Notes: a model not told the origin generated them from the letters alone. 64,000 nucleotides of DNA from Candidatus Multivorans sp. (GCA_965222875.1 CBDCVC010000002.1:802835-866834); one strand, 5' to 3'. Counted from the first letter of the stretch, positions 15,776-60,976 are shown. Translations and numbers: made by a program.

Positions 15776-16694
15776 CCACTTCCCGTTTCTCTCGTTCCGC
15801 TTCGACGCCGTGACTTCCCTGCCCGCAGCTCTCACCGACGCGCAGTGGCCGCGGGCACTCGTGCGCCAGCTCCGGCGCGGGCGGGAGCTGGTGGGCAATG
15901 GTCCCGCAATCGGAATCCAGGAGACGGACGCCGATCTGTTCGCCACGCGGCTTCGCGGTGTCGACCTGTTGCTCGGCGGCGGGATCTGCCGCGGGCAGAC
16001 GGTCGAGTTGGTCGGCCACCGAAGCAGCGGTCGCTTCTCCCTGGTGCTGGAGCTCCTGGCCGGCGCCACCCAGAGCGGTGAATCGGCGGCGCTGGTCGAC
16101 CTGGGAGATCACTTCGATCCACAGGCGGCGGCGCGCGCCGGGGTCGTCCTCGAACGGCTGCTCTGGGCGCGGCCCCAGCGATTGAAGCAAGCGCTGGGCA
16201 GTGCCGAAGTGCTGATCGGCGGCGGCTTCCCCCTGGTCGCGATCGACCTCGGACTGCCTCCGGTGCCCGGCGGCCGCGGCAAGGAGTCCGCGTGGTTGCG
16301 GCTGCGGCGGGCGGCGCTGGATCACCAGGCGGCGCTGCTGATCGCCAGCCCGTACCGCGCCGGCGGTACGGCGCCGCAGAAGATTCTCGAACTGGGTTCC
16401 CGCGCGTCGCCGGTCCGGAATGCGGGCGAGACGCCCGCGTTCCCAGGGGGCGAGACGCCGCCGGTTCGCGCTCTCTGGGCGCAGGCCGCGCCGAGAAGCC
16501 CGCGGTTGCTCGACGGGCTCGCGACCCGCCTGGAACTCGCCAAGTCGCGCGGCGCACGGCCGGGCGCCGCGACCGATGTCGAACTGCGCGTTCGCACCAG
16601 CAGCCTGCGGCGCCCCCTGCCCGGCACGCCGTCCCGACCTGCGAAGAACAGCTCCGCCGGCTCGCCCGCCGAGGTGCTGAGACGTGCCGGCTAA
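15762..16694 (+). CDS. imuA: ImuA-like RecA-fold protein of the imuA-imuB-dnaE2 mutagenesis cassette (start uncertain)
   Basis: The pattern TRLRGVDLLLGGGICRGQTVELVGHRSSGRFSLVLELLAGA...AALVDLGDHFDPQAAARAGVVLERLLWARP...LIGGGFPLVAIDLG is typical of ImuA/SulA-like proteins. It lies immediately upstream of, and overlaps, imuB. The ORF-track start is 15729; GTG at 15806 is an alternative start. Confidence 0.6.
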   Translation: MMLSSHFPFLSFRFDAVTSLPAALTDAQWPRALVRQLRRGRELVGNGPAIGIQETDADLFATRLRGVDLLLGGGICRGQTVELVGHRSSGRFSLVLELLAGATQSGESAALVDLGDHFDPQAAARAGVVLERLLWARPQRLKQALGSAEVLIGGGFPLVAIDLGLPPVPGGRGKESAWLRLRRAALDHQAALLIASPYRAGGTAPQKILELGSRASPVRNAGETPAFPGGETPPVRALWAQAAPRSPRLLDGLATRLELAKSRGARPGAATDVELRVRTSSLRRPLPGTPSRPAKNSSAGSPAEVLRRAG

Positions 16695-16716
16695 ACGCAA
16701 CTCCCGGATCGCCTGC

Positions 16717-18237: not shown

Positions 18238-18355
18238 GGGGGTCCACATGGACTCGAGACCTACAGATTCCAGATGGCTGCCATCGGCCCACTTATAGAG
18301 TTCTGCCCGGCTTTTATCGATTCTCGCTATAAACGGCCGACAGGAGAAGAACAGC

Positions 18356-18790
18356 ATGAAGAACCAATGGATCTTCCCGACCCTCACCGGGATCAACTTC
18401 GCACTCCTGGCATTGCTCCTGTTGCTGCCCTACCTCACGAAGGCGGACGCCGCCGAAGACACCGTCCTGCGTGGCACGGGGATCGAGATCGTGGACCGTG
18501 ACGGACGCTTGCGGGCGCAGCTCGTCCTGGAGCCCGAAAACCCCGACTACGAGTGGCCGGACGGGCGAATCGGGTATCCCGAAACCGTCATCCTCCGGCT
18601 GATCACCGCTGACGGAAAGCCGCGGGTCAAGATCACGACTTCCGAGGAGGACTCCGGCCTCATGCTCCTCGGGGCGTCCGACACGACCCACACGATTCTC
18701 AAGGCGTTTCGGGACGAGACGTCTCTGTTGTTGCGGAACGACGCCACGGCCCAACGACTGCTGACGCCCGGCGTGTCGGCAGCCCGGTAG
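18356..18790 (+). CDS. Hypothetical exported or membrane-anchored protein
   Basis: RBS AGGAGAAG, and an N-terminal hydrophobic segment FPTLTGINFALLALLLLLPYL. Confidence 0.55.
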   Translation: MKNQWIFPTLTGINFALLALLLLLPYLTKADAAEDTVLRGTGIEIVDRDGRLRAQLVLEPENPDYEWPDGRIGYPETVILRLITADGKPRVKITTSEEDSGLMLLGASDTTHTILKAFRDETSLLLRNDATAQRLLTPGVSAAR

Positions 18791-18806
18791 TCCGAACGCG
18801 CCGGCC

Positions 18807-19196
18807 TCAATCGTCCGGCAGGGCGGGTCCCGGCACCCGCCCGCCGATGACCTGCTCCGTCACCACACGGCCACCGATCAGGTGTTCCTGGATCACTCGT
18901 TCCAGCACCTCGGGCGTGCAACCCCAGTACCAGACGCCCTCCGGGTAGACCACCGCGATCGGGCCGGCGTCGCAGATCCGGAGGCAGTTCGCCTTCGTCC
19001 GCATGACCGTGCCGGACTCCGTCAGGCCGATCTCGACCAAGCGGCGCTTGAGGTAGGACCACGACTCGAGTGACGTCTCCAGCTCGCAGCACTTGGGCGT
19101 CGTCTGGTCGCAGCACAGAAAGATGTGCCGCTGCACGTTCGAGATGCCGATCGACTCGGCCTTGCGCCGGGCGCGGTCGAGCGCTTCGCGGTCCAT
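18807..19196 (-). CDS. Thioredoxin-like [2Fe-2S] ferredoxin
   Basis: HIFLCCD...KCC...[22 protein letters not shown] matches the Cys ligand pattern of thioredoxin-like 2Fe-2S ferredoxins. Confidence 0.75.
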
Positions 19197-19249
19197 GGCG
19201 CCGATGATTCCATGACCGGCGCGGAGCTCCAGCGATAGTCTGCGATGCC

Positions 19250-19624
19250 ATGAAGCTGTTCGAAGCCGCCTACCCGTTCCAGGACGACGTGCTCGCCCTG
19301 CCGGTAGACGATCTTGACGCCACCGCGAAGTGGTACGCGGACGCCTTCGGGCTCCAGGAGGTCGAACGGCGCGAGGAACCGGCGCCGACGGTCATTCTCG
19401 AACGCGACGGCGTCCGGATCGGCTTCGCGATCAACGGCGGCGACGCAAGCATGGACGGCGCCGCGATCCTGGTCACCGACATCAAGCGAGCGCGGACCGA
19501 GCTCAAGAGCAACGGCATCAAGGTCAAGAACTGGCGCATCGACAAGCGGGACGGCAAGAAGTTCCGGGTCTTCTTCGTCGTCGCGCCGGACGGACTCTGC
19601 TACTACTTCCATCAGGAGGTCTGA
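19250..19624 (+). CDS. VOC family protein (glyoxalase-like)
   Basis: 124 aa with VOC-like beta-alpha-beta3 composition ([15 protein letters not shown]...GVRIGFAI...[18 protein letters not shown]). Confidence 0.65.
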
Positions 19625-19683
19625 CGGGGCGACCGTCGGTCACGGTAAGATCGGGCGTCCACGGCTTCAGGGGCACGTACTTC

Positions 19684-20019
19684 ATGCTCACGCTTGACCC
19701 CGACGAACAGACTTGGCTCGACGACTACCGGAAGGCGCTCCGAGAACAGCACCCGGACGCCGTCCGGCGCATGGTCGTCTACGGCTCAAAGGCCCGTGGC
19801 GACGCCCGCGAAGACAGTGATCTGGACATCCTGCTCCTGGTTGCCGACGAGGCCGCGGACCTCCAGCGGCGCCTCAGGCGCATCGGCTACCACCTCGCCG
19901 CGGCCACGCCGATCGCGCCCTCGATCATGGCGTACACGAAAGGAGCGTGGGAGACACAGAAGAACCGCGGCTTCCCATTCCAGCTCGCCGTTGAGCGCGA
20001 CGCCGTCTCGGTTCTGTGA
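19684..20019 (+). CDS. Minimal nucleotidyltransferase (second MNT, orphan)
   Basis: MVVYGSKARGDAREDSDLDILLLV is the GS-x9-DxD MNT signature. The stop TGA abuts the ATG of a 16-codon ORF (MLYLLTKGLTEDDLAC*) at 20020-20070. Confidence 0.7.
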   Translation: MLTLDPDEQTWLDDYRKALREQHPDAVRRMVVYGSKARGDAREDSDLDILLLVADEAADLQRRLRRIGYHLAAATPIAPSIMAYTKGAWETQKNRGFPFQLAVERDAVSVL

Positions 20020-20097
20020 ATGCTCTATCTGCTGACGAAGGGACTGACCGAAGACGATCTTGCGTGCTGAGGAACTCGAGGGACCCGGTTCTGAGGG

Positions 20098-21846
20098 ATG
20101 GCAATCGGCTTGCGAATGACAGTTCACTCCGAAAGACGGGAGGTCGTCGCAGCCGTCATGGTCGGCGTGGCGCTCCTTCTTCATCAGGCCGCCAACGCCC
20201 AGGACTTCGCCGAACTCCTGGAGATCCGGCGCGTCAAGGAGACGCTGGACCTGAGCGAGGTGCCGGAACCGGACCTGACCGGGGTTCCCGCGGTCGACGG
20301 GCAGCGTCTTCAGGAGTACCGGTCGCTCACCGCGAACGCCCTGGAACACGCCGCGGGGCCTCTCGAGGCGCAGTTGGCGGCGAACACCTACGGCGACCTG
20401 TGCGCGCGCTACCTGCACTACGAGCTCCACGACGCGGCGGCCGGCTGCCTGGATCAGATCAGGGAGCTGGCGCCGGCGGACTTCCAGTGGGCCTACTTCC
20501 AGTTGCTGCTGGACATTGCGACCGGCAACTTTGAAGGCGCCCTCTCGAGCGCCGAACAGGCGCTCGCCATGCGGCCGGACGACCCGCCGACCTTGATTCG
20601 CCTGGCCGAACTCCACGTCGCGGCCGGCGACATCGACGCCGCCGAAGCCGCGTACGAAGCGGCGCTTGCGGCCTATCCGGAGAGCGCCACGGCCCGCGTC
20701 GGCCTCGGCTACATCGCAATGGAACGCGGCGATCCGGCGCGCGCGCTCGAGATCTTCCAGGAAGTCGCCGCGTCGCAGCCCGAGGGCAGCGAGGCGAATC
20801 ATCACGTCGGCCTCGCCTACCGCGCATTGGGTGATGGCGACCGGGCCGTCGAGGCGTGGCGCCTGAACCAGGACATTCAGATCCCGATGTACGACCCGCT
20901 GATCGAACGCCTCAGGCCGCTCGAGGAAGATGTGATCCTGCCGCTCGACCGCGCCGTCGCCGCCGCCGCGGAGGGCGACCACCAACGGGCGGTCGGGCTG
21001 TACGAAGAGATCCTCCAAGCGAACGAGGCGGACGACGAAGCGCACTTCCGCCTGGCGGGCTCGCTGCTGGTGCTCGGCGAGGCCGTGCGCGGCGAAGGGC
21101 ATCTACGCCGGGCGATCGCGCTGAACACCGATCACGCCGGAGCGCACTTTGCCCTCGCCATGTTCCTCGCTCAAGCCGGACGCCGCAGCGACGCCGCCCA
21201 ACACCTGGAACGGGCGGCCGATCTCGCGCCCCAGAACCTGCCCTGGCGTCTTCAGCGGGCGCAGATGCGGGCCGCCTCGGGCAACACCGCCGGCGCCATC
21301 GACGAACTCAGGCAGATCGTGGCCCTCGACCCCGGGATGATCGAAGCACGGCGACCGCTCGCCGCCCTGCTCGTCGGCGCGGGCCGGGCCGAAGAAGCCG
21401 CCGCCCAGTTGCAGGCCCTGGTCGCGCTGACGCCGGACGATCTGCAGGCGCGCTTCAACCTCGGGCTGATGCTGTTCCAGACCGGCCGCTACACCGAGGC
21501 GCGCGCGGCTCTGGACGAAGCTCTGGGGCGCTTCCCCAGCGACATCGCCACCCGCCACCTGCTGGCGCGGCTGCTTGCCGTGAGCCCCGACGAGGCGGTG
21601 CGCGACGGCGCACGGGCGGTCGAGCTGGCGCAGTCGGTGGTCGACGAACAACCCGCACTCGACCACCTCGAGACGCTGGCGATGGCCCTGGCCGAGGCCG
21701 GGCGGTTCGACGACGCCGTCGCTTGGCAGCAACGGACGCTCGAACGGGAACGGGCCGAGGCCGGTGGTAACTCGTCCCAACGGCTCGATCGGCTGGCGCT
21801 GTACCAGGCGCGGCAGCCGCTGCGGGCCCCGCGGCGTCAGAACTAG
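20098..21846 (+). CDS. TPR-repeat protein with N-terminal signal peptide
   Basis: Signal-like VAAVMVGVALLLHQAANAQD, followed by many Ala-rich TPR-like repeats. Confidence 0.7.
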   Translation: MAIGLRMTVHSERREVVAAVMVGVALLLHQAANAQDFAELLEIRRVKETLDLSEVPEPDLTGVPAVDGQRLQEYRSLTANALEHAAGPLEAQLAANTYGDLCARYLHYELHDAAAGCLDQIRELAPADFQWAYFQLLLDIATGNFEGALSSAEQALAMRPDDPPTLIRLAELHVAAGDIDAAEAAYEAALAAYPESATARVGLGYIAMERGDPARALEIFQEVAASQPEGSEANHHVGLAYRALGDGDRAVEAWRLNQDIQIPMYDPLIERLRPLEEDVILPLDRAVAAAAEGDHQRAVGLYEEILQANEADDEAHFRLAGSLLVLGEAVRGEGHLRRAIALNTDHAGAHFALAMFLAQAGRRSDAAQHLERAADLAPQNLPWRLQRAQMRAASGNTAGAIDELRQIVALDPGMIEARRPLAALLVGAGRAEEAAAQLQALVALTPDDLQARFNLGLMLFQTGRYTEARAALDEALGRFPSDIATRHLLARLLAVSPDEAVRDGARAVELAQSVVDEQPALDHLETLAMALAEAGRFDDAVAWQQRTLERERAEAGGNSSQRLDRLALYQARQPLRAPRRQN

Positions 21847-21898
21847 CAACACCGGTTCATACCGGCGCTGCGCCGGATGCGGGCAAGATGCCCGTGTT

Positions 21899-21955
21899 CC
21901 ATCCGTGCGCCCGATGGCGGGCGCACGGAGTGGTTCGCGGGTGGCGCGGAATCGC
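21899..21955 (+). repeat. Conserved palindromic hairpin element, copy A
   Basis: CCGTGCGCCCG-ATGG-CGGGCGCACGG (11-bp perfect stem at 21904-21929) followed by GAGTGGTTCGCGGGTGGCGCGGAATCG. About 57 nt recur at 43531-43590 with 5 mismatches. Confidence 0.6.
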
Positions 21956-22060
21956 GCCGCCCGGGTTCCCAGGGCGGATAAGCGCGGCGATCTCCCGGCT
22001 GTCGACGCCTGGGTTCCCAGAGGTCTTGCTATCCATTACCGCCTGATTTACGCTTACCGG

Positions 22061-25000
22061 ATGGCTCCCAAGGTCAAAGTACCGGCCCGCAACATGGGGC
22101 TGTCCGGCTCGATGCGCAAGGGCAGCAACCGCGGCGGCGGTAACGGCAACGGCCTGCTCGACGCCCGGGGCGAGCCGAACCCCGGCTATGCCGCGCCGGG
22201 GGCGGTCAAGGAGCAACTGCGCCGGCGCGACCTCCAGCCCCCGCCGAAGCGCCGTCGACGGCCGCCGTCCTACGCCGAACTCCACGCTGCCTCGTCGTTC
22301 TCCTTCCTGCGCGGCTCGTCGCAGCCCGAGGATCTGGTGGCGCGGGCGGCGGCGCTCGGGCTGCCGGCGGTCGCCCTGCTCGACCGGAACGGCGTCTCCG
22401 GCGCGCCGCGCTTCTACAAGGCGGCGCGGGAGGCGGGGATCCGGGCGCTGGTCGGCGCCGAGGCGGTCATCGACCGGCCGCAGGCGTCGGCGGTTTCGCG
22501 GCAGCGCGAGGAGCGGCCGATGCTGGACGATCAGGAAACCCGCGTCCAGCTTCTGGTGAGGAGCCGACAGGGCTACCGCAACCTCTGCCGCCTGCTGACC
22601 GCCGGGGCGCTCAACCACCCGAAGGGCGAGGCCCGGATCGACTGGACGCTGCTCGAGGAGCACGCGGCCGGGCTCCACTGCCTGGCCGGCGCCGCAGCCG
22701 ACCCGATCGGACGGGCGCTGACGCGGGAAGGGCAGGAAGCGGCCGGTCGCCAGCTCGAACGGCTGCACGCCGTCTTCCCGGGCCGCCTGCATGTGGAGCT
22801 CGCGCGGCACGGCATCCGCGCCGAGGAACATCGCAACCAGGCCCTGGTCCGGCTGGCGCAGAGGCTGGCGGTACCCGTTGTGGCCACCGGCGGCGTGCGC
22901 TACGCCACCGCCGCCGACAAGCCCCTCTACGATCTGATGACCGCGATCCGGCACCACGTAACGGTCGACGACGCCGGCGCGCGCCTCGCCCGCTGCCGGC
23001 AGCGGCGTCTGAAGAGCCCGGAAGAGATGCACCGGCTGTTCGCCGATCTGCCGCAGGCCGTCCACGCCGCGCACGAACTGGCCGCGGAACTCGACTTCAC
23101 CCTCGCCGACCTCGGCTACCGCTTCCCGGACTACCCGCTTCCCGCCGGCGAGACGGCGATCTCCCATCTCCGCGAACTGACCTGGCAGGGGGCGCGGGAG
23201 CGATTCCGGCCGCTCACCGCCCGCGCCGGGGCGCAACTCGAGAAGGAGCTCGCGCTGATCGAGAAGCTCGACCTCGCCGGCTACTTCCTGATCGTCTGGG
23301 ACATCGTCCGCTTCTGCAAGGAGCAGCGGATCTTCGCCCAGGGCCGCGGCTCGGCCGCCAACTCCGCGGTCTGCTATGCGCTCTCGATCACCGCGGTGGA
23401 CCCGGTGAAGATGGACCTCCTGTTCGAGCGCTTCCTGTCCGAAGAACGGGGCGAATGGCCGGACATCGACATCGATCTGCCGTCCGGCGACCAGCGCGAG
23501 AAGGTCATCCAGTACGTCTACCGGCGCTACGGCCGGCACGGCGCGGCGATGACCGCGAACGTGATCACCTACCGCGACCGCATGGCCGCGCGCGAGGCGG
23601 CCAAGGCGCTGGGGTGCTCCAAGTCCCAGGTCGACCGGCTGGCCAAAGGCCTCGGCCACTGGCACTCCGCCCTGAGATACAGCGGCCTCTCCCGCGGCGA
23701 CAGCAAGGAGATGGACGAGGAACTGACGGAGCTCGGGTTCGATCCCCGCGACCGGCGCATCCAGATCTTCGTCCGGTTGTGGCGGCAGCTTCAGAACCAT
23801 CCCCGCCACCTGAGCCAGCACTCGGGCGGCATGGTGCTCTGCGCCGGCCGACTGGACGAGATCGTGCCGCTCGAACCGGCGGCGATGGAGAACCGGGTCA
23901 TCGTCCAGTGGGACAAGGACGACTGCGCCGATCTGGGGCTGATCAAGGTCGACCTGCTCGGCCTCGGCATGCTGAATGCGCTGGAGGAGGCGGTGCCCCT
24001 GATCCACCGGCACGAAGGCAGGGAGATCGACCTGGCTCACCTGCCGCCCGACGACCCGGCGGTCTACGAGATGATCTGCCGCGCCGACACGGTCGGGGTC
24101 TTCCAGATCGAGAGCCGGGCGCAGATGGCGTCCCTGCCGCGCCACCGGCCATACAAGTTCTACGATCTCGTGATCCAGATCGCGATCATCCGCCCCGGCC
24201 CGATCGTCGGCGGGATGGCCCATCCCTTCTTCGAGCGCCGGGTGGGCCGCGAGGAGGTCACCTACCCTCACCCGCTGCTCGAGCCGATCCTGCGCCGCAC
24301 CCTCGGCGTACCGATCTTCCAGGAACAGATCCTCAAGGTCGCCATGGTCGCGGCCGGCTTCAGCGGCGGCGAGGCGGAGGATCTGCGGCGCGCGATGGGC
24401 TTCAAACGCTCCGTCGAGCGAATGCAGGAGATCGAACGCCGCTTACGTTCCGGCATGAACGAACGCGGCATCCAGGGCGTTGCCCAGGAACAGATCGTCA
24501 AGGCGATCACGTCGTTCGCGCTCTATGGTTTCCCGGAGTCGCACTCCGCCAGCTTCGCCCTGATCGCCTACGCCAGCGCCTACCTGAAGCGGCACCATCC
24601 GACCGCCTTCTTCCTGTCACTCCTGAACGCCTGGCCGATGGGCTTCTACCACCCGGCGACCCTGGTCCGCGAAGCGCAGCGCGCGGGCAGCGTGGTGCTG
24701 CCGATCGACGTGAACGAATCGGGGGTCAGGTGCCGTTGGGAAGACAGGCCGGCGGAGAGCGACGGGGTGGCGCGGCGCGGGCGCGCGGGCGATCCGCCGC
24801 GGGGAGCGATCCGCCTCGGGCTGCGCTACGTCAAGGGACTGCGGCACGAGGCGGCCGAACAGATCGAAGCCGAGCAGGCGGGAAAGCCGTTCGGGAGCAT
24901 TGAGGATCTGGCCGAGCGCTGCCGCTTGCGCCGGAAGGAACTCGCGGCGCTGGCGTCCATTGGCGCGTTGCCAGAGCGCGGCCGGCGGGCCGCGCTGTGG

Positions 25001-25492
25001 CAGGCGGCCCAGGTCGAGAAGCCGAAGGGGCCGTTGTTCGCGAGTCTTCCAACCGCCACCCCCTCGCCGCTCGACGAGATGACGCCAATGGAAGAGACCG
25101 CCGCCGACTTCCGCGTCGCCTCGATCACCACCGGACCTCACCCGATGGAGTACTACCGCCGGGCGCTCCACCGCCGCCGCGTCGTGCCCGCCGCCAAGCT
25201 CCCGGACCGGCCCGCCGGCCGCCGCGTGCGCACCGCCGGCTCGGTCATCGTCCGCCAGCGCCCCGGCACCGCCCGCGGGCTGCTGTTCCTGACCCTCGAG
25301 GACGAAACCGGCATGAGCCAGGCGGTCGTCATGCCGGACCAGTTCAAGAAGCACCGCCGCACGATCGTCTCGTCCTCCGGCCTGATCGTCGAAGGCGTGC
25401 TGCAGAAGAAGGACGGCTCGCTATCCGTCAAGGCGGACAAGTTCTGGCCGATCGACCGGCTGGAGAGAGTACCGAGCCACGACTTCCGGTGA
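22061..25492 (+). CDS. dnaE2: Error-prone DNA polymerase III alpha, DnaE2 (ImuC); start uncertain (22061, 22094 or 22112)
   Basis: PHP-domain start YAELHAASSFSFLRGSSQPEDLVARAAALGLPAVALLDRNG and the DnaE2-type polymerase core. The N-terminal extension is Gly/Arg-rich. Confidence 0.85.
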   Translation: MAPKVKVPARNMGLSGSMRKGSNRGGGNGNGLLDARGEPNPGYAAPGAVKEQLRRRDLQPPPKRRRRPPSYAELHAASSFSFLRGSSQPEDLVARAAALGLPAVALLDRNGVSGAPRFYKAAREAGIRALVGAEAVIDRPQASAVSRQREERPMLDDQETRVQLLVRSRQGYRNLCRLLTAGALNHPKGEARIDWTLLEEHAAGLHCLAGAAADPIGRALTREGQEAAGRQLERLHAVFPGRLHVELARHGIRAEEHRNQALVRLAQRLAVPVVATGGVRYATAADKPLYDLMTAIRHHVTVDDAGARLARCRQRRLKSPEEMHRLFADLPQAVHAAHELAAELDFTLADLGYRFPDYPLPAGETAISHLRELTWQGARERFRPLTARAGAQLEKELALIEKLDLAGYFLIVWDIVRFCKEQRIFAQGRGSAANSAVCYALSITAVDPVKMDLLFERFLSEERGEWPDIDIDLPSGDQREKVIQYVYRRYGRHGAAMTANVITYRDRMAAREAAKALGCSKSQVDRLAKGLGHWHSALRYSGLSRGDSKEMDEELTELGFDPRDRRIQIFVRLWRQLQNHPRHLSQHSGGMVLCAGRLDEIVPLEPAAMENRVIVQWDKDDCADLGLIKVDLLGLGMLNALEEAVPLIHRHEGREIDLAHLPPDDPAVYEMICRADTVGVFQIESRAQMASLPRHRPYKFYDLVIQIAIIRPGPIVGGMAHPFFERRVGREEVTYPHPLLEPILRRTLGVPIFQEQILKVAMVAAGFSGGEAEDLRRAMGFKRSVERMQEIERRLRSGMNERGIQGVAQEQIVKAITSFALYGFPESHSASFALIAYASAYLKRHHPTAFFLSLLNAWPMGFYHPATLVREAQRAGSVVLPIDVNESGVRCRWEDRPAESDGVARRGRAGDPPRGAIRLGLRYVKGLRHEAAEQIEAEQAGKPFGSIEDLAERCRLRRKELAALASIGALPERGRRAALWQAAQVEKPKGPLFASLPTATPSPLDEMTPMEETAADFRVASITTGPHPMEYYRRALHRRRVVPAAKLPDRPAGRRVRTAGSVIVRQRPGTARGLLFLTLEDETGMSQAVVMPDQFKKHRRTIVSSSGLIVEGVLQKKDGSLSVKADKFWPIDRLERVPSHDFR

Positions 25493-25505: not shown

Positions 25506-27938
25506 CTACCGGCCCGACCGCACCGGTACGCCCTGCCGGTACTGCTCCAGTCTCCGGTTCAGAAGCTCAAGCAGCCGTTCCCGGTCGGCCGGGGCCGCCT
25601 GCTGCCGTCCCGTGCCGCCGCGGATGGCCTCCAAGGCGGTCTCGATGGTCCGGATCGCGGCATCGAAGTCGCCGGTCTCGGCGTAGGCGGCGGCCAGAGT
25701 CTCGAGCAGAGCCGGCTCGGTGCCGCCGGCGACCGCATTCAGTTCGAGTGCGATGATCAGGGCGAGTTGGCCGTCGCGGCGGCCGGCATCCCGATCGGTC
25801 GCCAGGGTCCAGGCGAGGTCGTTGCCACGCGCGAGCAGACGCTCGTCCTCGACGTAGGCGCGCCGCAGGTGCTCCGTGCCTTCCAGAGCGCCCTCCGGTC
25901 CGCTACGCAGAAGAGTCAGCCCGAGTTCGTGGCGGCCGGCGGCGTGATTGGGGTCATGCTCCAGGAGCGATCGGTAACGCTTCACCGCTTCGTCCAGACG
26001 GCCCGTACCGGCAGCCACCTGAGCGGCGCCGTAGAGGGCGTCGACGTCGCGAGGCGCCACGTCGAGAATCGCCCGGTAGTGCGCCGCGGCGGCCTCCGGG
26101 TAGCCGCTGCGGACCGCCGCGACGGCCAGGATCCCGTGCGCCTCGACGTGCCGCGGATCGCGGTCGACGACCGCGGCGAACTGCTCCATCGCCGCAGCCA
26201 GCCGGTCCAGCTTGCCGAGCAACTGGCCGTAGAGGTATCTGAGATCCACATCGTCGGGGCTCTGCTCCACGGCGCGACCGAGTTCATCTGCCGCGGCCTC
26301 GGTTTGCCCCTCGCTGTCCAGGAGTTCGGCCAGCCGCACCCGGGCGGCGACATCGCCGGGATCCGCCGCCAGCGCCGACTCCACTTCGGCACGTACCTGG
26401 TCCACGTCGCCGGCGTCGACCAGGGCGTTCTGGTAGGCCATCCGCGCACCTGGATCGTCCGGTTCGAGGTCCAGGGCGGCGCGGGCGTGACGCGCGGCGG
26501 CCTGGTTGTCGCCGCGCCGGCTCTCGATCACCGCCAACCGCTGGAGTGACTTGAACAGCCGGTCCCGCGCACCGCGCTGCTCGAACGAGGCTCTCCCACC
26601 GCCGTCCGCCCGGCTGCCGTCCAGCCGCGCCTGCTCCACCTCCACCGACCGTTGCAGGAAGTCCACGGACTCGGTGGGGAAACGGTCCTCGAACCAGCGC
26701 GCGTAGCTGGCCAGCGACACCTCGTCCGGCGGCTCGGTGAACCAACGGCCGGCGACCGGCGCCGAGGCCGCCCGCAGCGCGGAGCGCGGAGCGTCGAGTA
26801 GTTCGAGGTCGGCCAGAAGATCGCCGGCGGTCACACCGCCACGGTAGAGAACGGCGACCCGGCCCTCGCCGTCGATCAGCATGGAGAACGGCAGCGACAG
26901 CGGGAAGCGGCGGTCGAACAGCGAGCGCTTGACGATCTCGACCTTGTCGAGGGTCTCCTCGGTCGCCATCCCGTTGCGGAACGGAAAGCCGATCCCGTCC
27001 ATGAACTCTCGGGCCGACTCCTCAGTCGTGGTCGGCACGTCGCCCATGCCATCGGTCGACAGCGCCGCGATCTCGAGCCCGGCTGCGCGTAGCGCATCCT
27101 CTGCGGCCGTCAGGTCGCGCAGCTCTGACCGGCAGGGAGCGCACCAGCTCGCCCAGATGTTGAGCAGTACGGGGCGACCCCGGCCGATCGCGACCGACGC
27201 CGGTTCCGAGGCGCCGAAGGGACGGAGCGTTAGCTGCGGCGAAGGCGGCCGCGGCGCCAGCACGACGCGGGCGCCCGTGATCGGCGCGGGCGGCTGCTGC
27301 TCACCGGGTTCGAGCGCTGTCTGCCGCCTTCGCGCGGGCGCCGGCGCCGCCCGGCCGCTGCCCTGGACGATCCGGTAGCGGCCGCCGGCCGCAATGCCGC
27401 TGAACGTCTCCCGGCCGGCGCCGGGCCAGTGGACCGTCACCACGCTCGCCGGTTGGCCGTCGCCGAGGCCGAAGTGCAGCCAGCGGCTGGACTGGGAGAG
27501 GAAGCCCTCGCCGGCGCGCACCGAGCGCCGCAAGACGCCGTCCGTCGTCCCAAGCTCGACCCGGGCGCCCACCGCGTCGCGGTTCGTGCCGGCGCCGTCG
27601 CCTTCGAGGTGCAGCGCGACAAAGCGGTCGTCCGCGGCCAACTCGTTGCGCATCAGCCGCAGCCGGGGCGCGGTCCGGTTGCTGATCGCCACATCCAGGT
27701 CGCCGTCGCCCTCCAGGTCGAGGAAGGCGACGCCGCGGCCGTCGTCCGGAAAGTCCAGACCGCTCACCGCCGAGGCGTTGGCAAAGGCGCCGCCCGCCCG
27801 GCCGGGGTTCAGGAAAACGCAGTTCCGTTCGTTGCCGCTGAAGGACAGCCCCTCGTCGAGCCGCTCGTGGAGCGCGCGCAGGGATTCGAGATAGGGCTCG
27901 AGCGAGCGGTCATCGGGAGTTCTGGGCGCACGCGGCAC
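25506..27938 (-). CDS. C-terminal part of a CRTAC1-like protein: ASPIC/UnbV, thioredoxin-like (TlpA) and TPR. It is separated from its upstream part by one in-frame TGA.
   Basis: ASPIC/UnbV motifs NRDAVGARVEL...SGEGFLSQSSRWLHFGLGDG...VTVHWPGAG, thioredoxin-like WASWCAPCRSE, and C-terminal TPR repeats. It is in the same frame as 27960..29784. Confidence 0.7.
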   Translation of the reverse strand: MPRAPRTPDDRSLEPYLESLRALHERLDEGLSFSGNERNCVFLNPGRAGGAFANASAVSGLDFPDDGRGVAFLDLEGDGDLDVAISNRTAPRLRLMRNELAADDRFVALHLEGDGAGTNRDAVGARVELGTTDGVLRRSVRAGEGFLSQSSRWLHFGLGDGQPASVVTVHWPGAGRETFSGIAAGGRYRIVQGSGRAAPAPARRRQTALEPGEQQPPAPITGARVVLAPRPPSPQLTLRPFGASEPASVAIGRGRPVLLNIWASWCAPCRSELRDLTAAEDALRAAGLEIAALSTDGMGDVPTTTEESAREFMDGIGFPFRNGMATEETLDKVEIVKRSLFDRRFPLSLPFSMLIDGEGRVAVLYRGGVTAGDLLADLELLDAPRSALRAASAPVAGRWFTEPPDEVSLASYARWFEDRFPTESVDFLQRSVEVEQARLDGSRADGGGRASFEQRGARDRLFKSLQRLAVIESRRGDNQAAARHARAALDLEPDDPGARMAYQNALVDAGDVDQVRAEVESALAADPGDVAARVRLAELLDSEGQTEAAADELGRAVEQSPDDVDLRYLYGQLLGKLDRLAAAMEQFAAVVDRDPRHVEAHGILAVAAVRSGYPEAAAAHYRAILDVAPRDVDALYGAAQVAAGTGRLDEAVKRYRSLLEHDPNHAAGRHELGLTLLRSGPEGALEGTEHLRRAYVEDERLLARGNDLAWTLATDRDAGRRDGQLALIIALELNAVAGGTEPALLETLAAAYAETGDFDAAIRTIETALEAIRGGTGRQQAAPADRERLLELLNRRLEQYRQGVPVRSGR

Positions 27939-27959
27939 GACCTGCCGCCAAAAGAAGCT

Positions 27960-29784
27960 TCACAGGTCGTCCGGGAGGGTCTGGGTCAGGTTGCCGTTGG
28001 CTACCACCAGGTCCTCCCAGCCATCGTTGTTGATGTCCGCGAACACCGACGACCAGGACCACCGGCCCATCGCTACGTCGGCCTGGACGCTCCGGTCGAC
28101 GAAGCCGCCGCCTGTGCCCGCGAACAGCGAATTGCCGCGCGCCATCCGCTGGACCTCCGCCAGCGGACCGGCGCGCTGCCGGTCGCGCTCGAACTTCCGC
28201 TGGTAGGTGATCCGGTTGCCCGCGGCCGAGAACATGTTGCCGACGTAGACGTCCATGCGGCCGTCGCGGTTGTAGTCGGCCCAGCTCACCGACATCCCGG
28301 ACGAGATGTCCTCGACTCCGGCATCCGCCGCCACGTCGACGAACGTGCCGCCGTCGTTGCGGTACAGGTTGTTGCGGCCGTAGTCGTTCGCCACGTAGAG
28401 GTCGGCGTCGCCGTCGCCGTCGTAGTCCTCCCACGACGCCGCCAGGCTGAAGCGGCGGTTGTTGCGGTCGAGCCCCGCCGAGGCCGTCGCGTCGACGAAC
28501 CGGAAACCGCCGTCGTTGCGGAGCAGCACGTTGCGGCCGCCGTTGTTCGCGTCGTGGTACGGCACCGGGCTCGCCACCCCGCGCTCGTCGTAGGCGCGGC
28601 GGTAGGCGCAGACGTAGAGGTCGAGGTCGCCGTCGCCGTCGTAGTCGGCCGCCGACAGCGAGTTGCTGTCGGGGATGTCGCCGGCGATGTAGCGGACGCG
28701 GGCGAAGCCGCCGTCGCCGTCGTTCTCGAGCACCAGCACCGCCGGCCGGCTGGAGAGCGCCAGGTCCGGGTCGCCGTCGTTGTCGAGATCGACGAACAGC
28801 CCGGCGAGGGCGCGCTCCAGGTAGTCGACCGCCGCCGCTGCCGAGCGGTCGTCGAACGTGCCGTTCGGGTTCTGTAGGTAGAGACGGTTCGGCAGTCCGC
28901 CCTGCTCGGGCAGGAAGATGTCCTCCAGACCGTCGCCGTTGACGTCGGCGACGGACACGCCCTGCCATCCCGTCTTGTTGTAGCCCGCCGCCTTGGTGAT
29001 CCGGTTGAGCCAGGCGTCCGGCGGCTGCAGCAGTTGCTCCCGGTAGCTCGGGTTGTGACCGACGGCGGCTTCGGTGACGTCAACGAACAGGGGCCCTCCG
29101 GCCGCGGAGGTCTCCTCGTAGTCGCTCACCTCGACCGTGCGCAGGAGCGGCTGGCCGGCGCCGTCCGGCGGCACCGTCCAGGTCGTCGTCCAGACCGCGT
29201 TCAACTGGCGACTGCCGCCTGCTCCCGGTGCCGACGCCTCGAAGTAGGAGCGGGTACTGAAGCTCGCCGCGTCGCCCTCGATCGTGAAGAGCTTGAAGTC
29301 GGCCCGCGGCGATCCGCTGCCGGTCAAGCGCCCGCCCAACACCAGCAGCGCGTCCACGAAACCCTCGACGCCCCTATAGGCGAAGCGCCCGGGCTGGCCA
29401 ACACTCACAGCGAAAGTCGCACCGGTGTAGCGCTCGCTCAATTCATCGGGGACGAAGCCCCGGGTCTCGAACGTCTCGTCAACCGCCTCATCCAACGCAT
29501 CCAGCGACACCGCGGCCACGCCGCCTACGAGCCAGCCCGCGATGCGCTTGAGCTGCGCCTCGGCCTGTTCGCTGAGCGCTTCGCTGTCCCAGCCATCGGC
29601 ACGGGGATCAACGGCAGCGGCGAAGTTCTCCGGCCCGAAGGCGGGAGATGTCTCAACAGCCGCGGCCGCCGCGCGGCGATCCTGTGCCACCGCCGTCGGT
29701 GAGGCGCCCAGCAGGACTATCGCCGAGAACGTAGCCGCAGCAGGCAGAACAGACGGTGGCTTCAACAAGTTCTTGAGTGCCATT
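27960..29784 (-). CDS. N-terminal part of the same CRTAC1-like protein: signal peptide plus FG-GAP/VCBS repeats
   Basis: The probable start MALKNLLKPPSVLPAAATFSAIVLLGASPTAVAQD is at 29784. Repeated DxDGDGDxDL FG-GAP motifs follow. It ends at TGA 27960-27962. Confidence 0.7.
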
Positions 29785-29989: not shown

Positions 29990-30226
29990 ATGGGGAACTT
30001 GACTGTCCGCAACCTCGACGATCGCGTTGTCGATCAACTAAAGGAGAAAGCACGGGAGAACCACCGCTCCCTGGAGGCCGAGGTTCGCCACCGTCTCACC
30101 GAGAGCGTCTCGAACCGGCTCCGCATGGCAACGTTCCGCGAGCGCACGAGGCGTCTTGCAGAGGCGACAGCCGGCACACCTCAAACGGACAGCACGATCC
30201 TGATACGCGAAGATCGAGACCGTTGA
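29990..30226 (+). CDS. RHH/FitA-like antitoxin (VapB-type)
   Basis: RBS GGGAGAG precedes the ATG. MGNLTVRNLDDRVVDQLKEKARENHRSLEAEVRHRL is the ribbon-helix-helix plasmid-stability antitoxin pattern. Its stop overlaps the next start (TTGA). Confidence 0.7.
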   Translation: MGNLTVRNLDDRVVDQLKEKARENHRSLEAEVRHRLTESVSNRLRMATFRERTRRLAEATAGTPQTDSTILIREDRDR

Positions 30227-31059
30227 GGGTCACGGTCGATGCGAGCGGCGTCATCAAGTGGTACGTGGCCGAGCCACGGCGGGCTGAAGCGCGCCTTCTG
30301 CTTGAAGACGGCATCGACTGCCACGCGCCCGACTTCGTCCTGATCGAATGCGCCAACGTTCTCTGGAAGAAGAGTCGCCGGAAAGAGATCGCAGACCCGG
30401 CTACTCTTCTCGAAGAGATCCAACGGTCGAAAGTCGTCAAGCTTCACCCTTCGGCCAGCCTGCTACTCGATGCGACGAAGACGGCGGAGGCGATAGATCA
30501 CCCCGTCTACGACTGTCTCTACATCACCTGCGCTCAGCACACCGGCTCCACGCTGGTCACCGACGATCGACGGCTGACGAGCGTCGTCAAGGAGAGACTG
30601 CCGTCACTCCCGGTACTGAACCTCCAGGACCCGGAGGCGGCCCAGACGATCGCAGCAGCAGCTATCCGGCTAGTCATAGACCCGGGAAGGCTCGATGAGC
30701 TACTCGGCGCCGTTCGTCGGCTCGACGCGACCAGCAAGAACATCTTCGAGAGCTGGCTCCGTGAAACAGGCGGATCCAGGGACGCCGAGCCTGAAGAACG
30801 CGCGCTACTTGAGGATTCGATCCCCGTCCAGGAACTGCTCCGTCTCATCGGTGGGTTGAGCGACGACGAGCGAGTCGACCTACTGGCTCTCGGCTGGCTC
30901 GGCATGAGCAGCTCGGAAACGGAATCCTGGGATCGCCTGCTCATCCGCGCGAGTGAATCGGCCGGGGGGTTCGACGCTCGGCAGATTGCGAATCTCTGCC
31001 ACTACTGGGCCAAGGGTCGGGACCGCCTCGCCAAGCTCCGCACGCACCCTCCCGCGTAA
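30223..31059 (+). CDS. PIN-domain (VapC-like) protein with a roughly 125-aa C-terminal extension of unknown function
   Basis: VTVDASGVIKWYVAEP...DFVLIECANVLWKK...VYDCLYITCAQHTGSTLVTDD is a PIN acidic-residue pattern. The extra C-terminal region RLVIDPGRLDELLGAV...CHYWAKGRDRLAKL follows in the same frame. Confidence 0.6.
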   Translation: MRVTVDASGVIKWYVAEPRRAEARLLLEDGIDCHAPDFVLIECANVLWKKSRRKEIADPATLLEEIQRSKVVKLHPSASLLLDATKTAEAIDHPVYDCLYITCAQHTGSTLVTDDRRLTSVVKERLPSLPVLNLQDPEAAQTIAAAAIRLVIDPGRLDELLGAVRRLDATSKNIFESWLRETGGSRDAEPEERALLEDSIPVQELLRLIGGLSDDERVDLLALGWLGMSSSETESWDRLLIRASESAGGFDARQIANLCHYWAKGRDRLAKLRTHPPA

Positions 31060-31112: not shown

Positions 31113-33329
31113 GTGAGCCCCGGTTCCAGGATCCCCTTCGGCCTGGGGCAAACCAAGCCGCACCACTTCCTGGAGATGGCCAAGGTGGCCTGGCGGAACC
31201 GGGACGAGGGCGGCTACGCGTGGCGCATCCTGCGCGACGGGGTCTGCGACGGCTGCGCGCTGGGCACTTCGGGTTTGCGTGACTGGACACTGGACGGCGT
31301 CCACCTGTGCATGGTGCGTCTCGATCTGCTGCGGCTGAACACGATGCCGGCCCTCGACCCGGCCGTCCTCGCCGATGCCGACGCTCTCTCCGCCCGCGAC
31401 TCCACGGCGCTGCGCGGTCTGGGACGCCTCGCTCACCCGATGCTGCGACGGGCCGGAGAGCCAGGGTTCCGGCGGATCGGCTGGCCCGAGGCGACCGACA
31501 TCACGGCGTCCAGGCTCGCGGACGTCCGGCAGCGCGACCCCACGCGGGCGGCCTTCTTCCTGACCTCGCGCGGCATTCCCAACGAGACCTACTACGTGGC
31601 GCAGAAGGCCGCCCGCTTCTTCGGCACGCCCCACGTAGACACCGCTGCCCGCCTCTGCCACGCCGCCTCCACGGTGGCGTTGCATCGCGCGCTGGGATTC
31701 GGCGCCGCGACCAACTCCTACCGCGACTGGCTCGACGCGGACCTGATCGTGTTCTTCGGCTCGAACGTGCCGAACAACCAGCCGGTGACGATCAAGTATC
31801 TCCACTTCGCCCGCCGCCGGGGCGCCGAGATCGCGGTCGTCAACCCGTATCGCGAACCCGGCCTCAAGCGCTACTGGGTGCCGTCGGTCCCTTCGAGCGC
31901 CCTGTTCGGCACCGACCTCGCCCAGCACTGGTTCGCGGTCGACACCGGCGGCGACCTCGCCTTCCTGAACGGCACGATGAAGGCCCTGCTCGATCTGCCC
32001 GGAGGCGTCGCGCGCGACTTCGTCGATCGCTCCACCGAGGGCTTCGCCGAGGTCGAGGCGGCGCTGAGAGGAACCGGCTGGTCCGAGCTCGAGAGCTCGA
32101 GCGGCGCCTCGCGTGCCGAGATGGAGCGATTCGCCGGGCTTCTCTGCTCCAAGCCGAAGACCGTCCTGGTCTGGTCGATGGGGCTGACCCAGCACCGCCA
32201 CGGTGTCGACACCGTGCTCGCGATCTGCAACCTCGGCCTGATGCGCGGCCTCCCGGGCCGCCCCGCCGCGGGCCTGGTTCCGATCCGCGGCCATTCCGGC
32301 GTCCAGGGCGGGTCCGAGGTCGGCTGCGCACCGGTGACCGAAGCGCAGACGCTCGATCGTTGGGCCGGGGTCTGGGGTTTCGAGCCCCCGCGCGGCCCCG
32401 GACTGGCCGCGACCGGCCAGATCGAGGCGGCGGCGGCCGGAGACATCGACGCGTTCTGGATACTCGGCGGCAACTTCCTGGAAACGACGCCGGACCGGGA
32501 GCGAGTAGAGAGCGCGCTGCACCGGCCGAAGCTCCGGATCCACCAGGACATCGTGCTCAACAGCGCGATGCTGGTCGAACCAAGCGACACGGTGCTGCTG
32601 CTGCCGGCTACGACCCGCTACGAGATCCCCGGAGGCGTGACCGAGACGACGACAGAGAGGCGGATCGTCTACTCGCCGCCGATCGACTACGGGGGCGCCG
32701 GGGCGCGGCGGCTCGGCGAATGCCGCCCGGAGTGGGAAGTGCTGTGCGAGATCGTCTCCAGGGTCCGGCCCGAGCCGCGAGGCGTCCTCGACTTCGCCGA
32801 CACGGCCGCGATCCGCGACGAGATCGCACGCGCCGAACCGCGCTACGCCGGCATCGAGCACCTGAAGCAGAAGGGCGACGAGGTCCAGTGGGGCGGTCCG
32901 CGCCTGTTCAAGGATGGACGCTTCGCGACCCCCTCGGGCCGAGCCGGCTTCCATGCCGTCGAACCGCCCGCGGAGCGCGGCCTCGAGGATGGCGAGCTCT
33001 TCCTCTCGACCCGCCGCGGCCGCCAGTTCAACTCGATGGTCCATCACGGGCGCGATGCCCTGACCGGTCTGGAACGCTCCGACCTGCTGATGAACGCCGA
33101 GGACGGTCGTATCCGGGAGATCGCGGACGGCGACCGCGTGGTCGTCTCGTCTCCCGTTTCGCAGGTCGAACTGGTGGCGCGCTTCCAACCGATCAAGGCG
33201 GGCAACGTCGAAGCGCACTGGCCGGAGTGCATGGAGCTGCTGCCCTGGTCACTGGATCCCGACTCCGGCGAGCCCGAATACGGCGTTCGGGTCAAGGTCG
33301 AACAGGTGGGCGCGAGCCGTGACGGCTAG
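31113..33329 (+). CDS. Molybdopterin oxidoreductase alpha subunit, FdhF/YdeP family (formate dehydrogenase-like)
   Basis: The N-terminal Fe-S Cys motif is VCDGCALG. MopB-domain composition; C-terminal molybdopterin dinucleotide-binding-like region. Confidence 0.75.
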   Translation: MSPGSRIPFGLGQTKPHHFLEMAKVAWRNRDEGGYAWRILRDGVCDGCALGTSGLRDWTLDGVHLCMVRLDLLRLNTMPALDPAVLADADALSARDSTALRGLGRLAHPMLRRAGEPGFRRIGWPEATDITASRLADVRQRDPTRAAFFLTSRGIPNETYYVAQKAARFFGTPHVDTAARLCHAASTVALHRALGFGAATNSYRDWLDADLIVFFGSNVPNNQPVTIKYLHFARRRGAEIAVVNPYREPGLKRYWVPSVPSSALFGTDLAQHWFAVDTGGDLAFLNGTMKALLDLPGGVARDFVDRSTEGFAEVEAALRGTGWSELESSSGASRAEMERFAGLLCSKPKTVLVWSMGLTQHRHGVDTVLAICNLGLMRGLPGRPAAGLVPIRGHSGVQGGSEVGCAPVTEAQTLDRWAGVWGFEPPRGPGLAATGQIEAAAAGDIDAFWILGGNFLETTPDRERVESALHRPKLRIHQDIVLNSAMLVEPSDTVLLLPATTRYEIPGGVTETTTERRIVYSPPIDYGGAGARRLGECRPEWEVLCEIVSRVRPEPRGVLDFADTAAIRDEIARAEPRYAGIEHLKQKGDEVQWGGPRLFKDGRFATPSGRAGFHAVEPPAERGLEDGELFLSTRRGRQFNSMVHHGRDALTGLERSDLLMNAEDGRIREIADGDRVVVSSPVSQVELVARFQPIKAGNVEAHWPECMELLPWSLDPDSGEPEYGVRVKVEQVGASRDG

Positions 33330-34242
33330 GCCGCCTGAGACCACTGAGCGCCCCGCAGCCCGCGCGGCGCTGGTCGAGCGGGACGCCGGCGAGGTGCGGA
33401 GCGACCGGGTGGCGATCGAAGAGCCGCTGGAGATCCGCGTCGACGGCGAGGCCCTCGTGGTCACCATGCGCAGTCCGGGCGACGACGCGGAACTGACCCT
33501 GGGATACCTCTATGCCGAGGGCTGGATCGAAGAACTCGCCGATGTCGACGCGGTCACCGCCGGCAGCGCGGCGCCCACCGGCGGGCAGCATGACACTCAC
33601 GCGGCCGCCGACTCGACCAGCGTCTCGGGCTCGATCGTCGATGTCCGGCTATCCGGCAAGGGGCGTAGACGCTCCCGCCTGCGGGCCGACGCGAGCGAGC
33701 GCGAGCGCGCTTTCCGCGTCACCAGCGCCTGCGGCGTCTGCGGCAAGCCCTCGCTCGAAGACCTGTGGGTCCGCCTGCCGGCGATCCGGCCGCTGGCCCT
33801 CGAACCGGACCGCGAACGACGACTGGTGCAGGGCCTGCCCGCGGCGATGCAGGAACGCCAGGCGCTGTTCAGCGACACGGGAGGCGTTCATGCGGCCGCC
33901 CTGTTCGACGTCGACGGCAGCCGCGCCGAGCTGCTGTGGCTCTTCGAGGACATCGGCCGTCACAACGCGGTCGACAAAGTCGTCGGGCGGGCGCTTCGAT
34001 CGGGACGACTGCCCCTGGAATCCACCATGCTGGCTGTGAGCGGCCGCCTCGGCTTCGAGATCGTCCAGAAGGCGGCGGTCGCCGGCGTACCCCTGATTGC
34101 CGCCGTTGGAGCGCCGTCCAGCCTGGCGCTGGACATTGCCCACCTGGCTGGTATCCGCATCTACGCCTTCGTTGCCGGCGACCGCAGCAACCTTTATCCC
34201 GCGGCGCCGGTCGAGGCGCGCCAGGTAACCGGCGCCGATTGA
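33319..34242 (+). CDS. fdhD: Formate dehydrogenase accessory sulfurtransferase FdhD
   Basis: SACGVCGK and GRHNAVDK motifs. It overlaps the 3' end of the oxidoreductase gene. Confidence 0.85.
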   Translation: MTARPPETTERPAARAALVERDAGEVRSDRVAIEEPLEIRVDGEALVVTMRSPGDDAELTLGYLYAEGWIEELADVDAVTAGSAAPTGGQHDTHAAADSTSVSGSIVDVRLSGKGRRRSRLRADASERERAFRVTSACGVCGKPSLEDLWVRLPAIRPLALEPDRERRLVQGLPAAMQERQALFSDTGGVHAAALFDVDGSRAELLWLFEDIGRHNAVDKVVGRALRSGRLPLESTMLAVSGRLGFEIVQKAAVAGVPLIAAVGAPSSLALDIAHLAGIRIYAFVAGDRSNLYPAAPVEARQVTGAD

Positions 34243-59345: not shown

Positions 59346-59347
59346 CG

Positions 59348-60972
<1,625 letters not shown>

Positions 60973-60976
<4 letters not shown>

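Follow-up and report, generated by a model that had tools for sequence, protein, structure and literature searches.

A conserved in-frame UGA in a split FG-GAP/ASPIC/thioredoxin-like gene of Candidatus Multivorans is a candidate selenocysteine codon

INTRODUCTION

When a single stop codon divides two open reading frames (ORFs) that lie in one frame and together have the domain order of one protein, is that codon a true stop? The question is raised by a 64,000-nucleotide stretch of DNA from Candidatus Multivorans sp. (GCA_965222875.1, CBDCVC010000002.1:802835-866834; here, the window), which carries such a gene on its minus strand. A 607-codon ORF with FG-GAP repeats opens with an ATG at 29783 (MALKNLL...), ends in ...VANGNLTQTLPDDL, and is closed by a TGA at 27962-27960. 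Seven sense codons (SFFWRQV) follow, and then a GTG at 27938 that opens the ORF listed as 25506-27938, with one frame kept throughout. Counted from the TGA, the downstream frame comprises 817 codons with ASPIC/UnbV, thioredoxin-like (WCAPC), and tetratricopeptide repeat (TPR) domains and ends at a TAG at 25508-25506; the read-through product would thus have 607 + 1 + 817 = 1,425 residues.

A first-pass annotation, made from the sequence of the window, had described this locus as a protein of roughly 1,500 residues interrupted by a TGA and had proposed a recent nonsense mutation, a sequencing or assembly error, or programmed recoding, while arguing from the position of the TGA in an inter-domain linker that selenocysteine (Sec) was not involved. 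The ORF listing and translation agree that two ORFs in one frame are split by the TGA at 27960-27962 and SFFWRQV, and Pfam recovers the FG-GAP, ASPIC/UnbV, WASWCAPC thioredoxin, and TPR elements that were named, adding one FG-GAP_3 repeat downstream of the TGA. The start and the length had to be corrected: the frame that begins at 29784 holds seven stops, the actual ATG is at 29783, and the product is 1,425 residues long. Here, we present comparative evidence that the UGA at 27962-27960 very probably encodes selenocysteine within one 1,425-residue gene product (29783-25506, minus strand).

RESULTS

The TGA is conserved across three phyla together with the peptide encoded after it

To characterize the junction in related proteins, we ran a protein search across it and listed the 120 best homologues. 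Of these, 112 end at exactly the same ...DL; these ~600-residue proteins show identities of about 65% or more and come from Holophagales and other Acidobacteriota, Thermoanaerobaculia, Planctomycetes, Phycisphaerae, and Akkermansiaceae. The stop position is identical across Acidobacteriota, Planctomycetota, and Verrucomicrobiota at 32-90% identity, and a 90% identical orthologue lies on a Ca. Multivorans chromosome (OZ250177.1). With the 420 residues that follow the TGA as query, an exhaustive search returned 1,645 representatives at E <= 1e-30, and the best 150 (one per 50%-identity cluster) were examined. Among the 149 of these that were newly fetched (P0121-P0269), 148 start just past the TGA position, and P0144 is the only representative that spans the junction. 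Judged from these predicted proteins, the split form is the norm for a very large family.

At the DNA level, two sets of loci were compared: 16 genome-derived loci (the window and 15 others) and 120 loci from a motif-anchored census of metagenome contigs, collected with the pattern D-L-NNN-S-F-[FY]-W-R-Q-V. All 16 genome loci, which span the three phyla, have TGA at the position and SF[F/Y]WRQVV in frame after it. The slot in the census holds TGA in 40 loci, TAA or TAG in none, and a sense codon in the other 80 (Asn in 57, Gly in 7, Ser in 6, and Ala in 4, plus others). The stop is therefore TGA in 56/56 independent DNA loci and never TAA or TAG, compared with a TGA stop in only 16/28 ORFs of the window. 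Recurrence of the position and of the codon on this scale goes far beyond chance.

The first-pass annotation had noted that orthologues existing naturally as two genes would speak against one interrupted gene. They do appear so, superficially, in annotation; however, the codons from the TGA to the GTG are conserved as protein. Codons +1 to +8 keep S-F-[FY]-W-R-Q-V-V while varying synonymously (AGC/AGT, TTC/TTT, and CGG/CGA/CGC), and uninterrupted read-through paralogues hold the same peptide contiguously. In three of the loci (L005, L011, and L012), the first in-frame start occurs only at codon +23 to +31. The conserved TGA and the coding conservation across it support the option of programmed recoding.

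A hairpin after the UGA is maintained in TGA forms

The first-pass annotation had proposed folding the sequence 3' of the TGA for a bacterial selenocysteine insertion sequence (bSECIS). We did so and found a bSECIS-like hairpin of 6 bp, with the consensus GCGRCA-GGUCG-UGYCGC, that begins 11 nt after the UGA. The published criteria are a loop of 3-9 nt with a G in its first two positions, a stem of 4-16 bp, a UGA-to-loop distance of 16-37 nt, and a minimum free energy of <= -7.5 kcal/mol (PMC13188914). The window hairpin (-11.6 kcal/mol; 17 nt from UGA to loop) lies within these bounds, as do 15 of the 16 genome-derived TGA sequences, with L016 borderline at -7.3 kcal/mol.

More discriminating was a fixed-register comparison within the motif-matched census, where TGA forms and sense-codon forms encode the same peptide. 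The 6-bp stem is entirely paired in 38/40 TGA forms versus 1/80 sense forms (Mann-Whitney p = 4e-18 for stem pairing), so that the hairpin is specific to TGA forms by this test. Codon usage follows the same pattern: Val+7 is GTC in 37/40 TGA forms versus GTG in 55/80 controls, and in the TGA forms, Val+8 is GTG (35/40) and Ser+9 is TCG (37/40). Codon +10 begins with C irrespective of its residue (Gln, Arg, His, or Pro), and the codon of Ser+11 varies freely. By these codon counts, the stem is maintained through codon choice. Over all 56 sequences, 95.5% of stem cells are paired, one stem pair takes the forms AU, GU, GC, CG, and UG, and none of 500 shuffles reaches the covariation score; with 16 sequences, the covariation was weak, the score being matched by 31/500 shuffles. 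A covariance model trained on all 56 sequences has its sole window match at the hairpin (54.2 bits, the next match scoring 12 bits), a site that is itself in the training set.

The arrangement resembles that of the Escherichia coli fdhF SECIS, whose sequence we verified against 5,419 E. coli genomes. Both have a UGA, an 11-nt spacer, and a 17-nt stem-loop in the coding region with GGUC in the loop, and the window family shares the 7-mer core GCAGGUC with fdhF. The two differ in loop size, which is 5 nt (GGUCG) in the window and 4 nt in fdhF, and in their host proteins, which are unrelated. The six base pairs of the window stem are perfect and lack the bulged U that E. coli SelB contacts in the upper stem of the fdhF SECIS, and the window hairpin has no established extension into a lower helix.

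Two non-TGA loci, L014:4147 (Ala) and L015:7285 (Gly), also have fairly strong hairpins (-11.8 and -21.4 kcal/mol, respectively), in which the 5' arm comes from the same W-R-Q codons and the 3' arm is a different one. These could be SECIS relics left after replacement of Sec, or chance.

A sister clade has cysteine at the UGA position, and TGA forms retain a distant CxxC

Alignment of orthologues at the TGA position, another step that the first-pass annotation had proposed, placed a Cys in the column in 116/121 members of a sister clade (CRTAC1-type proteins of Planctomycetes, Verrucomicrobia, and Myxococcales; L036-type), where the motif reads DY-C-TxFWRHDIY. Terriglobia-type proteins, which share the four-part architecture, are the nearest relatives with a sense codon; they have Ser, Asn, Ala, or Gly at the position, never Cys.

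The thioredoxin-like domain encoded downstream contains a CxxC motif, which lies about 250-278 residues past the UGA in all 13 TGA genome loci that reach far enough. In the census, CxxC is intact in 34/35 TGA forms versus 0/69 sense-codon forms, the latter retaining the second Cys only or neither. The motif is also present in 148 of the 149 downstream representatives (best 150 of 1,645), and its two residues are the only invariant cysteines among 39 near-full-length TGA forms (39/39).

A second cysteine was also seen in many Cys-form CRTAC1 proteins of the sister clade (for example, P0392, P0396, and P0398), which read DY-C-T-R-F-W-C-HDIY, with the second Cys five residues on (CxxxxC). In these proteins, a local pair with a redox or metal-binding role might stand in for the distant CxxC.

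The UGA position is modeled at the start of a helix within the propeller

To place the UGA structurally, we used a model of the read-through paralogue P0060 (predicted local distance difference test score [pLDDT] = 88.5; predicted template modeling score [pTM] = 0.91). The TGA-equivalent residue is the first of a helix (residues 363-373, SSFFWRQVVGN), and another blade and the ASPIC beta-sandwich follow. The best solved match to the model is murine CRTAC1 (9etn_A; E = 4e-26; template modeling [TM] scores = 0.64/0.69); the sequence alignment with 9etn ended before the junction residue. The first residue of a helix is the usual setting of a redox-active Cys or Sec. In this paralogue model, then, the UGA site is a helix N-cap inside the propeller module. 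The inter-domain-linker placement suggested by the first-pass annotation does not agree with this model or with the propeller repeat that Pfam finds after the UGA. Its argument against Sec is not supported; the aligned Cys clade, the hairpin restricted to TGA forms, and the CxxC that is intact only with TGA also speak against it.

The CRTAC1/ASPIC-UnbV family likewise has an FG-GAP beta-propeller followed by a UnbV_ASPIC beta-sandwich. CRTAC1, however, is not a selenoprotein and lacks thioredoxin and TPR domains, and it offers no mechanistic guidance.

Weighing selenocysteine against other explanations

Several observations weigh against selenocysteine or its link to CxxC. A GTG that could serve as a restart codon is kept at codon +8 in 13/16 genome and 35/40 metagenome loci, although it is also part of the hairpin. 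The nearest non-TGA relatives carry Asn, Ser, Ala, or Gly, and Cys occurs only in a more distant clade without the thioredoxin domain; such a lack of Cys among the closest relatives is unusual for selenoproteins. P0144, a read-through protein of 1,418 residues, has Ser at the position with an intact CDPC, and the TGA form L142:450 has CPVS at the thioredoxin site, so that the coupling of Sec to CxxC is not absolute. The permissive bSECIS criteria also admit 4/5 non-TGA paralogues (including L015, at -21.4 kcal/mol), and in this 67% GC DNA, the window hairpin alone is no better than GC-matched shuffles (z = +0.67) and is therefore no evidence by itself. Finally, searches of the 64-kb window and of the fetched loci (1.9 Mb) recovered no selA, selB, selD, or tRNA-Sec; Rfam and ARAGORN returned nothing in the window, and tRNA-Sec was likewise missing from the ARAGORN output for the first 15 loci and for the complete set of 202 sequences (1.9 Mb). 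The lack of tRNA-Sec in the fetched stretches is uninformative about the Sec trait of the organism. A neighboring gene shared over the 56 loci (a CcdA/DsbD-like reductant supplier or sel genes) was also sought, and none was common to more than 4 loci.

How do other explanations fare with the same evidence? A single window would leave room for a pseudogene, a recent nonsense mutation, or a sequencing or assembly error, TGA being one base from TGG, TGT, TGC, GGA, CGA, and AGA. The occurrence of the same TGA at one position in 56 independent assemblies from three phyla excludes both mutation and error, which disposes of two of the explanations first offered for this locus. Identical or near-identical calls come from many samples (607-residue gene calls identical to that of the window are present in public data as P0002 and P0003), and the 817 downstream codons are intact, with a GC content of 0.87 at third codon positions (GC3) and complete domain content; we give this explanation next to no credence. 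An alternative genetic code with UGA as a sense codon genome-wide fares no better, as it has the in-frame UGA itself in its favor and nothing more. TGA closes 16/28 confident ORFs in the window, including the neighboring DnaE2-like gene, and is thus an ordinary stop in an organism that uses the standard code, as the carrier phyla do. Somewhat more can be said for two separate, translationally coupled genes, with a stop at the UGA, a restart at the GTG eight codons on, and possible non-covalent assembly of the products: all public gene calls split the locus in this way, and the GTG is widely kept. However, the seven codons between stop and GTG vary synonymously and match contiguous paralogues, L005, L011, and L012 have no start nearby, and the split would cut the beta-propeller, with one blade stranded in the second protein. 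Were it a plain stop, TGA would not recur at every one of the 56 loci over genomes of 40-71% GC, the GTG is accounted for as part of the 3' arm of the hairpin, and the Cys of the sister clade is left unexplained. We consider this arrangement improbable.

Equally improbable, in our estimate, is programmed read-through of the UGA without selenium, by a near-cognate tRNA (Trp, Cys, or Arg) or a suppressor and with the hairpin as a stimulator. All signs of translation across the UGA fit this explanation just as well, and it would accommodate both the failure to find Sec machinery in the available sequence and the lack of Cys in the closest sense-codon relatives. Yet we know of no cross-phylum conserved bacterial read-through of this kind, and a standard residue would need no more than a sense codon, such as thousands of paralogues have. 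The spacing, size, and loop of the hairpin are those of a SelB-binding SECIS, with GCAGGUC in common with fdhF, and the link to an intact CxxC together with the sister-clade Cys indicates a chalcogen residue. In addition, planctomycetes with such genes have the full Sec machinery (PMC4807772).

A proposed Sec/CxxC redox enzyme

Selenocysteine at this position suggests how the protein might work. The UGA would be decoded by SelB and tRNA-Sec, with insertion directed by a coding-region SECIS of the form UGA-N11-GCGGCA-GGUCG-UGCCGC. The resulting Sec-608 would lie at the N-terminus of the helix U-SFFWRQVV within the CRTAC1-type FG-GAP beta-propeller/ASPIC module and would be the redox-active catalytic residue; its oxidized form (a selenenylsulfide or selenenic acid) would be resolved by Cys881/Cys884 of the fused TlpA/ResA-like domain. 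The protein would act outside the cytoplasm, as its signal-peptide-like N-terminus suggests, and the TPR array may be a binding module for a partner or substrate. Under a shortage of selenium or Sec-tRNA, ribosomes would stop at the UGA and make only the 607-residue propeller fragment.

The comparative analysis shows UGA conservation, translation-type conservation across the UGA, selection on the hairpin at the RNA level, a Sec/Cys pair, and the co-occurrence of Sec with CxxC; Sec insertion itself, the redox relay, export, and a substrate are inferred. The product is probably an extracytoplasmic redox enzyme with a Sec/CxxC relay; as for the relay reading taken on its own, we hold it tentatively, the balance tipping slightly away from it. 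Tentative to the same degree, and a little short of evenly poised, is the proposal of a new class of selenoenzyme: proteins of ~1,400 residues that are extracytoplasmic, with Sec at a helix N-cap in an integrin/CRTAC1-type propeller and an obligate fused TlpA-like CxxC domain and TPR array. If this class holds, the two parts of the redox active site would have been acquired (or lost) as one unit, given that the nearest relatives combine Asn, Ser, Ala, or Gly with an inactive thioredoxin site.

Gene structure and domain assignments

The features of the gene are listed in Table 1. By-eye inspection indicates that the N-terminal sequence MALKNLLKPPSVLPAAATFSAIVLLGASPTAVA resembles a signal peptide; the ~230 residues after it match no family, and the FG-GAP repeats then start. 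The 3' part of the coding sequence (CDS) has the helix SFFWRQVV... as its first sub-feature, directly after the UGA, and the GTG called as the start of the "second gene" (27938-27936) sits within the hairpin.

Table 1 Features of the UGA-containing gene in the window
Feature	Position	Strand	Basis or remark
5' CDS part, 607 codons	27963..29783	-	Sequence; Pfam FG-GAP_3 1.8e-38, FG-GAP 2.5e-24
Predicted signal peptide, residues 1-33, MALKNLL...SPTAVA	29783-29685	-	Judged by eye
In-frame UGA, proposed selenocysteine codon, residue 608 of 1,425	27960..27962	-	Comparative loci; Cys at aligned sister-clade position
11-nt spacer AGCUUCUUUUG, UGA to hairpin	27949..27959	-	Encodes S-F-F and first 2 bases of W codon
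bSECIS-like hairpin: arm GCGGCA 27948-27943, loop GGUCG 27942-27938, arm UGCCGC 27937-27932	27932..27948	-	
3' CDS part, 817 codons	25509..27959	-	Pfam; PDB sequence matches; like architecture in relatives
One further FG-GAP_3 repeat, residues 42-91 after UGA	27836-27687	-	Pfam
UnbV_ASPIC, residues 129-195 after UGA	27575-27375	-	Pfam
AhpC/TSA thioredoxin-like domain (WASWCAPC), residues 260-372 after UGA	27182-26844	-	Pfam
CAPC redox motif of thioredoxin-like domain, U+273 to U+276	27132..27143	-	Proposed selenocysteine partner
TPR array, about residues 471-808 after UGA	26549-25536	-	Pfam
True stop TAG of full-length CDS	25506..25508	-	ORF and sequence

The Pfam scores lie above their cutoffs for FG-GAP_3 (131 bits), UnbV_ASPIC (54.9 bits), and AhpC-TSA, which marks the thioredoxin-like domain (35.6 bits; cutoff, 26). 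Sequence matches of this domain in the PDB include TlpA (8e-08) as well as ResA and DsbE. Because NCBIfam whole-protein equivalogs score well under their cutoffs (for TlpA, 44.9 versus 230), this resemblance holds at the domain level only; the NCBIfam scan found no specific family for either half of the gene. Extracytoplasmic thioredoxin folds of the TlpA/ResA type are already known in association with Sec, and the window domain shares their fold type, with a weak, sub-threshold match to NF041054 (32 bits; cutoff, 300). In those families, Sec lies within the thioredoxin redox motif, whereas the window protein has a plain WCAPC, and its proposed Sec lies ~273 residues upstream in the beta-propeller.

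Neighboring genes and other features of the window

Directly upstream of the UGA-containing gene and divergent from it, at about 29990-30700 (plus strand), the ORF list and the called genes of L201 show a small ribbon-helix-helix antitoxin-like gene (FitA-like/Arc) and a PIN-domain gene, a VapBC-type pair. The stretch 31113-34242 (plus strand) encodes a 738-residue molybdopterin oxidoreductase of the FdhF/YdeP type and, after it, holds an FdhD-NarQ gene. No stop interrupts the oxidoreductase gene, and its product carries Cys (ARLCHAAS) at the Sec position of formate dehydrogenase selenoproteins; it is a Cys-type relative of the classic selenoprotein, encoded ~1.3 kb upstream of the start codon at 29783. 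On the other side, 16684-25492 (plus strand) holds a Y-family polymerase-like gene (IMS domain, 16684-18234), a TPR protein (20098-21843), and a 1,242-residue ORF that, by eye, looks like an error-prone DnaE2-type polymerase alpha subunit; the region is a possible imuB-dnaE2 mutagenesis cassette.

A scan of the window for further in-frame TGA junctions gave just one more long example, at 46859-46861 (minus strand), which was rejected as a candidate: a 1,007-residue SNF2-family helicase stops there, and a LeuA/HMGL-like gene in the same frame begins at 46828, an arrangement of ordinary neighbors. Two HMGL-like/LeuA-dimer paralogues of the 2-isopropylmalate or homocitrate synthase type lie at 45266-46828 (minus strand) and 59024-60973 (plus strand).

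In two metagenome contigs (L188 and L119), a second paralogue of the family adjoins the TGA-containing gene. Three copies are also reported for planctomycete P1 (PMC4807772), and the two observations suggest that multi-copy families per genome are common.

DISCUSSION

Split ASPIC/FG-GAP gene pairs have been noticed as selenoprotein candidates before. Kim et al. (2016, PLoS One, PMC4807772) listed such pairs from two planctomycetes in Table S9, with a positive bSECISearch result in 3/4 and with selA, selB, selC, and selD present in the hosts (S2 Text). By description, these candidates are like the window gene: they belong to the same domain family and consist of two adjacent annotated genes split at an in-frame UGA. 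The closest uninterrupted match reported there is an acidobacterial protein with Gly at the aligned residue, which parallels L013 and L015 here. That study covers Planctomycetes only, whereas the window gene is acidobacterial (Holophagales-like), and it gives four supplementary rows without analysis, with no family survey, SECIS consensus, Cys clade, or CxxC link. Outside that supplementary table, we found nothing in literature main texts that pairs selenoproteins with FG-GAP, ASPIC, CRTAC1, UnbV, or VCBS. A 2026 catalogue of 119 prokaryotic selenoprotein families has no FG-GAP, VCBS, or ASPIC entry, and the deep-Sep, BSepDB, GOS, and 2022 review texts make no mention of such a family. The window gene is thus a new member of a candidate family that had been noticed but never characterized or catalogued. 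Because the nearest homologues have Asn, Ser, Ala, or Gly, searches for Sec/Cys pairs among nearest homologues would tend to miss this family.

If the UGA encodes selenocysteine, hundreds of database entries, named "VCBS repeat-containing protein" (~600 residues) and "TPR/peroxiredoxin" (~600-800 residues), each represent one half of a selenoprotein; the gene calls of NCBI, ENA, and JGI alike split family members. Since a large family in three phyla would be missing from the 119-family catalogue, the selenoproteome sizes of Planctomycetota, Verrucomicrobiota, and Acidobacteriota would be underestimated. Such a protein would also provide the first functional handle on the CRTAC1/ASPIC fold, for which no biochemical function has been assigned even in mammals, and a Sec outside the thioredoxin fold that is co-inherited with a fused CxxC domain would be a testable design for a redox relay. 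With >148 clusters at 50% identity, the family is abundant among Planctomycetota, Verrucomicrobiota, and Acidobacteriota of marine and soil habitats, and if its members are selenoproteins, it could rank among the commoner uncatalogued uses of selenium in the environment.

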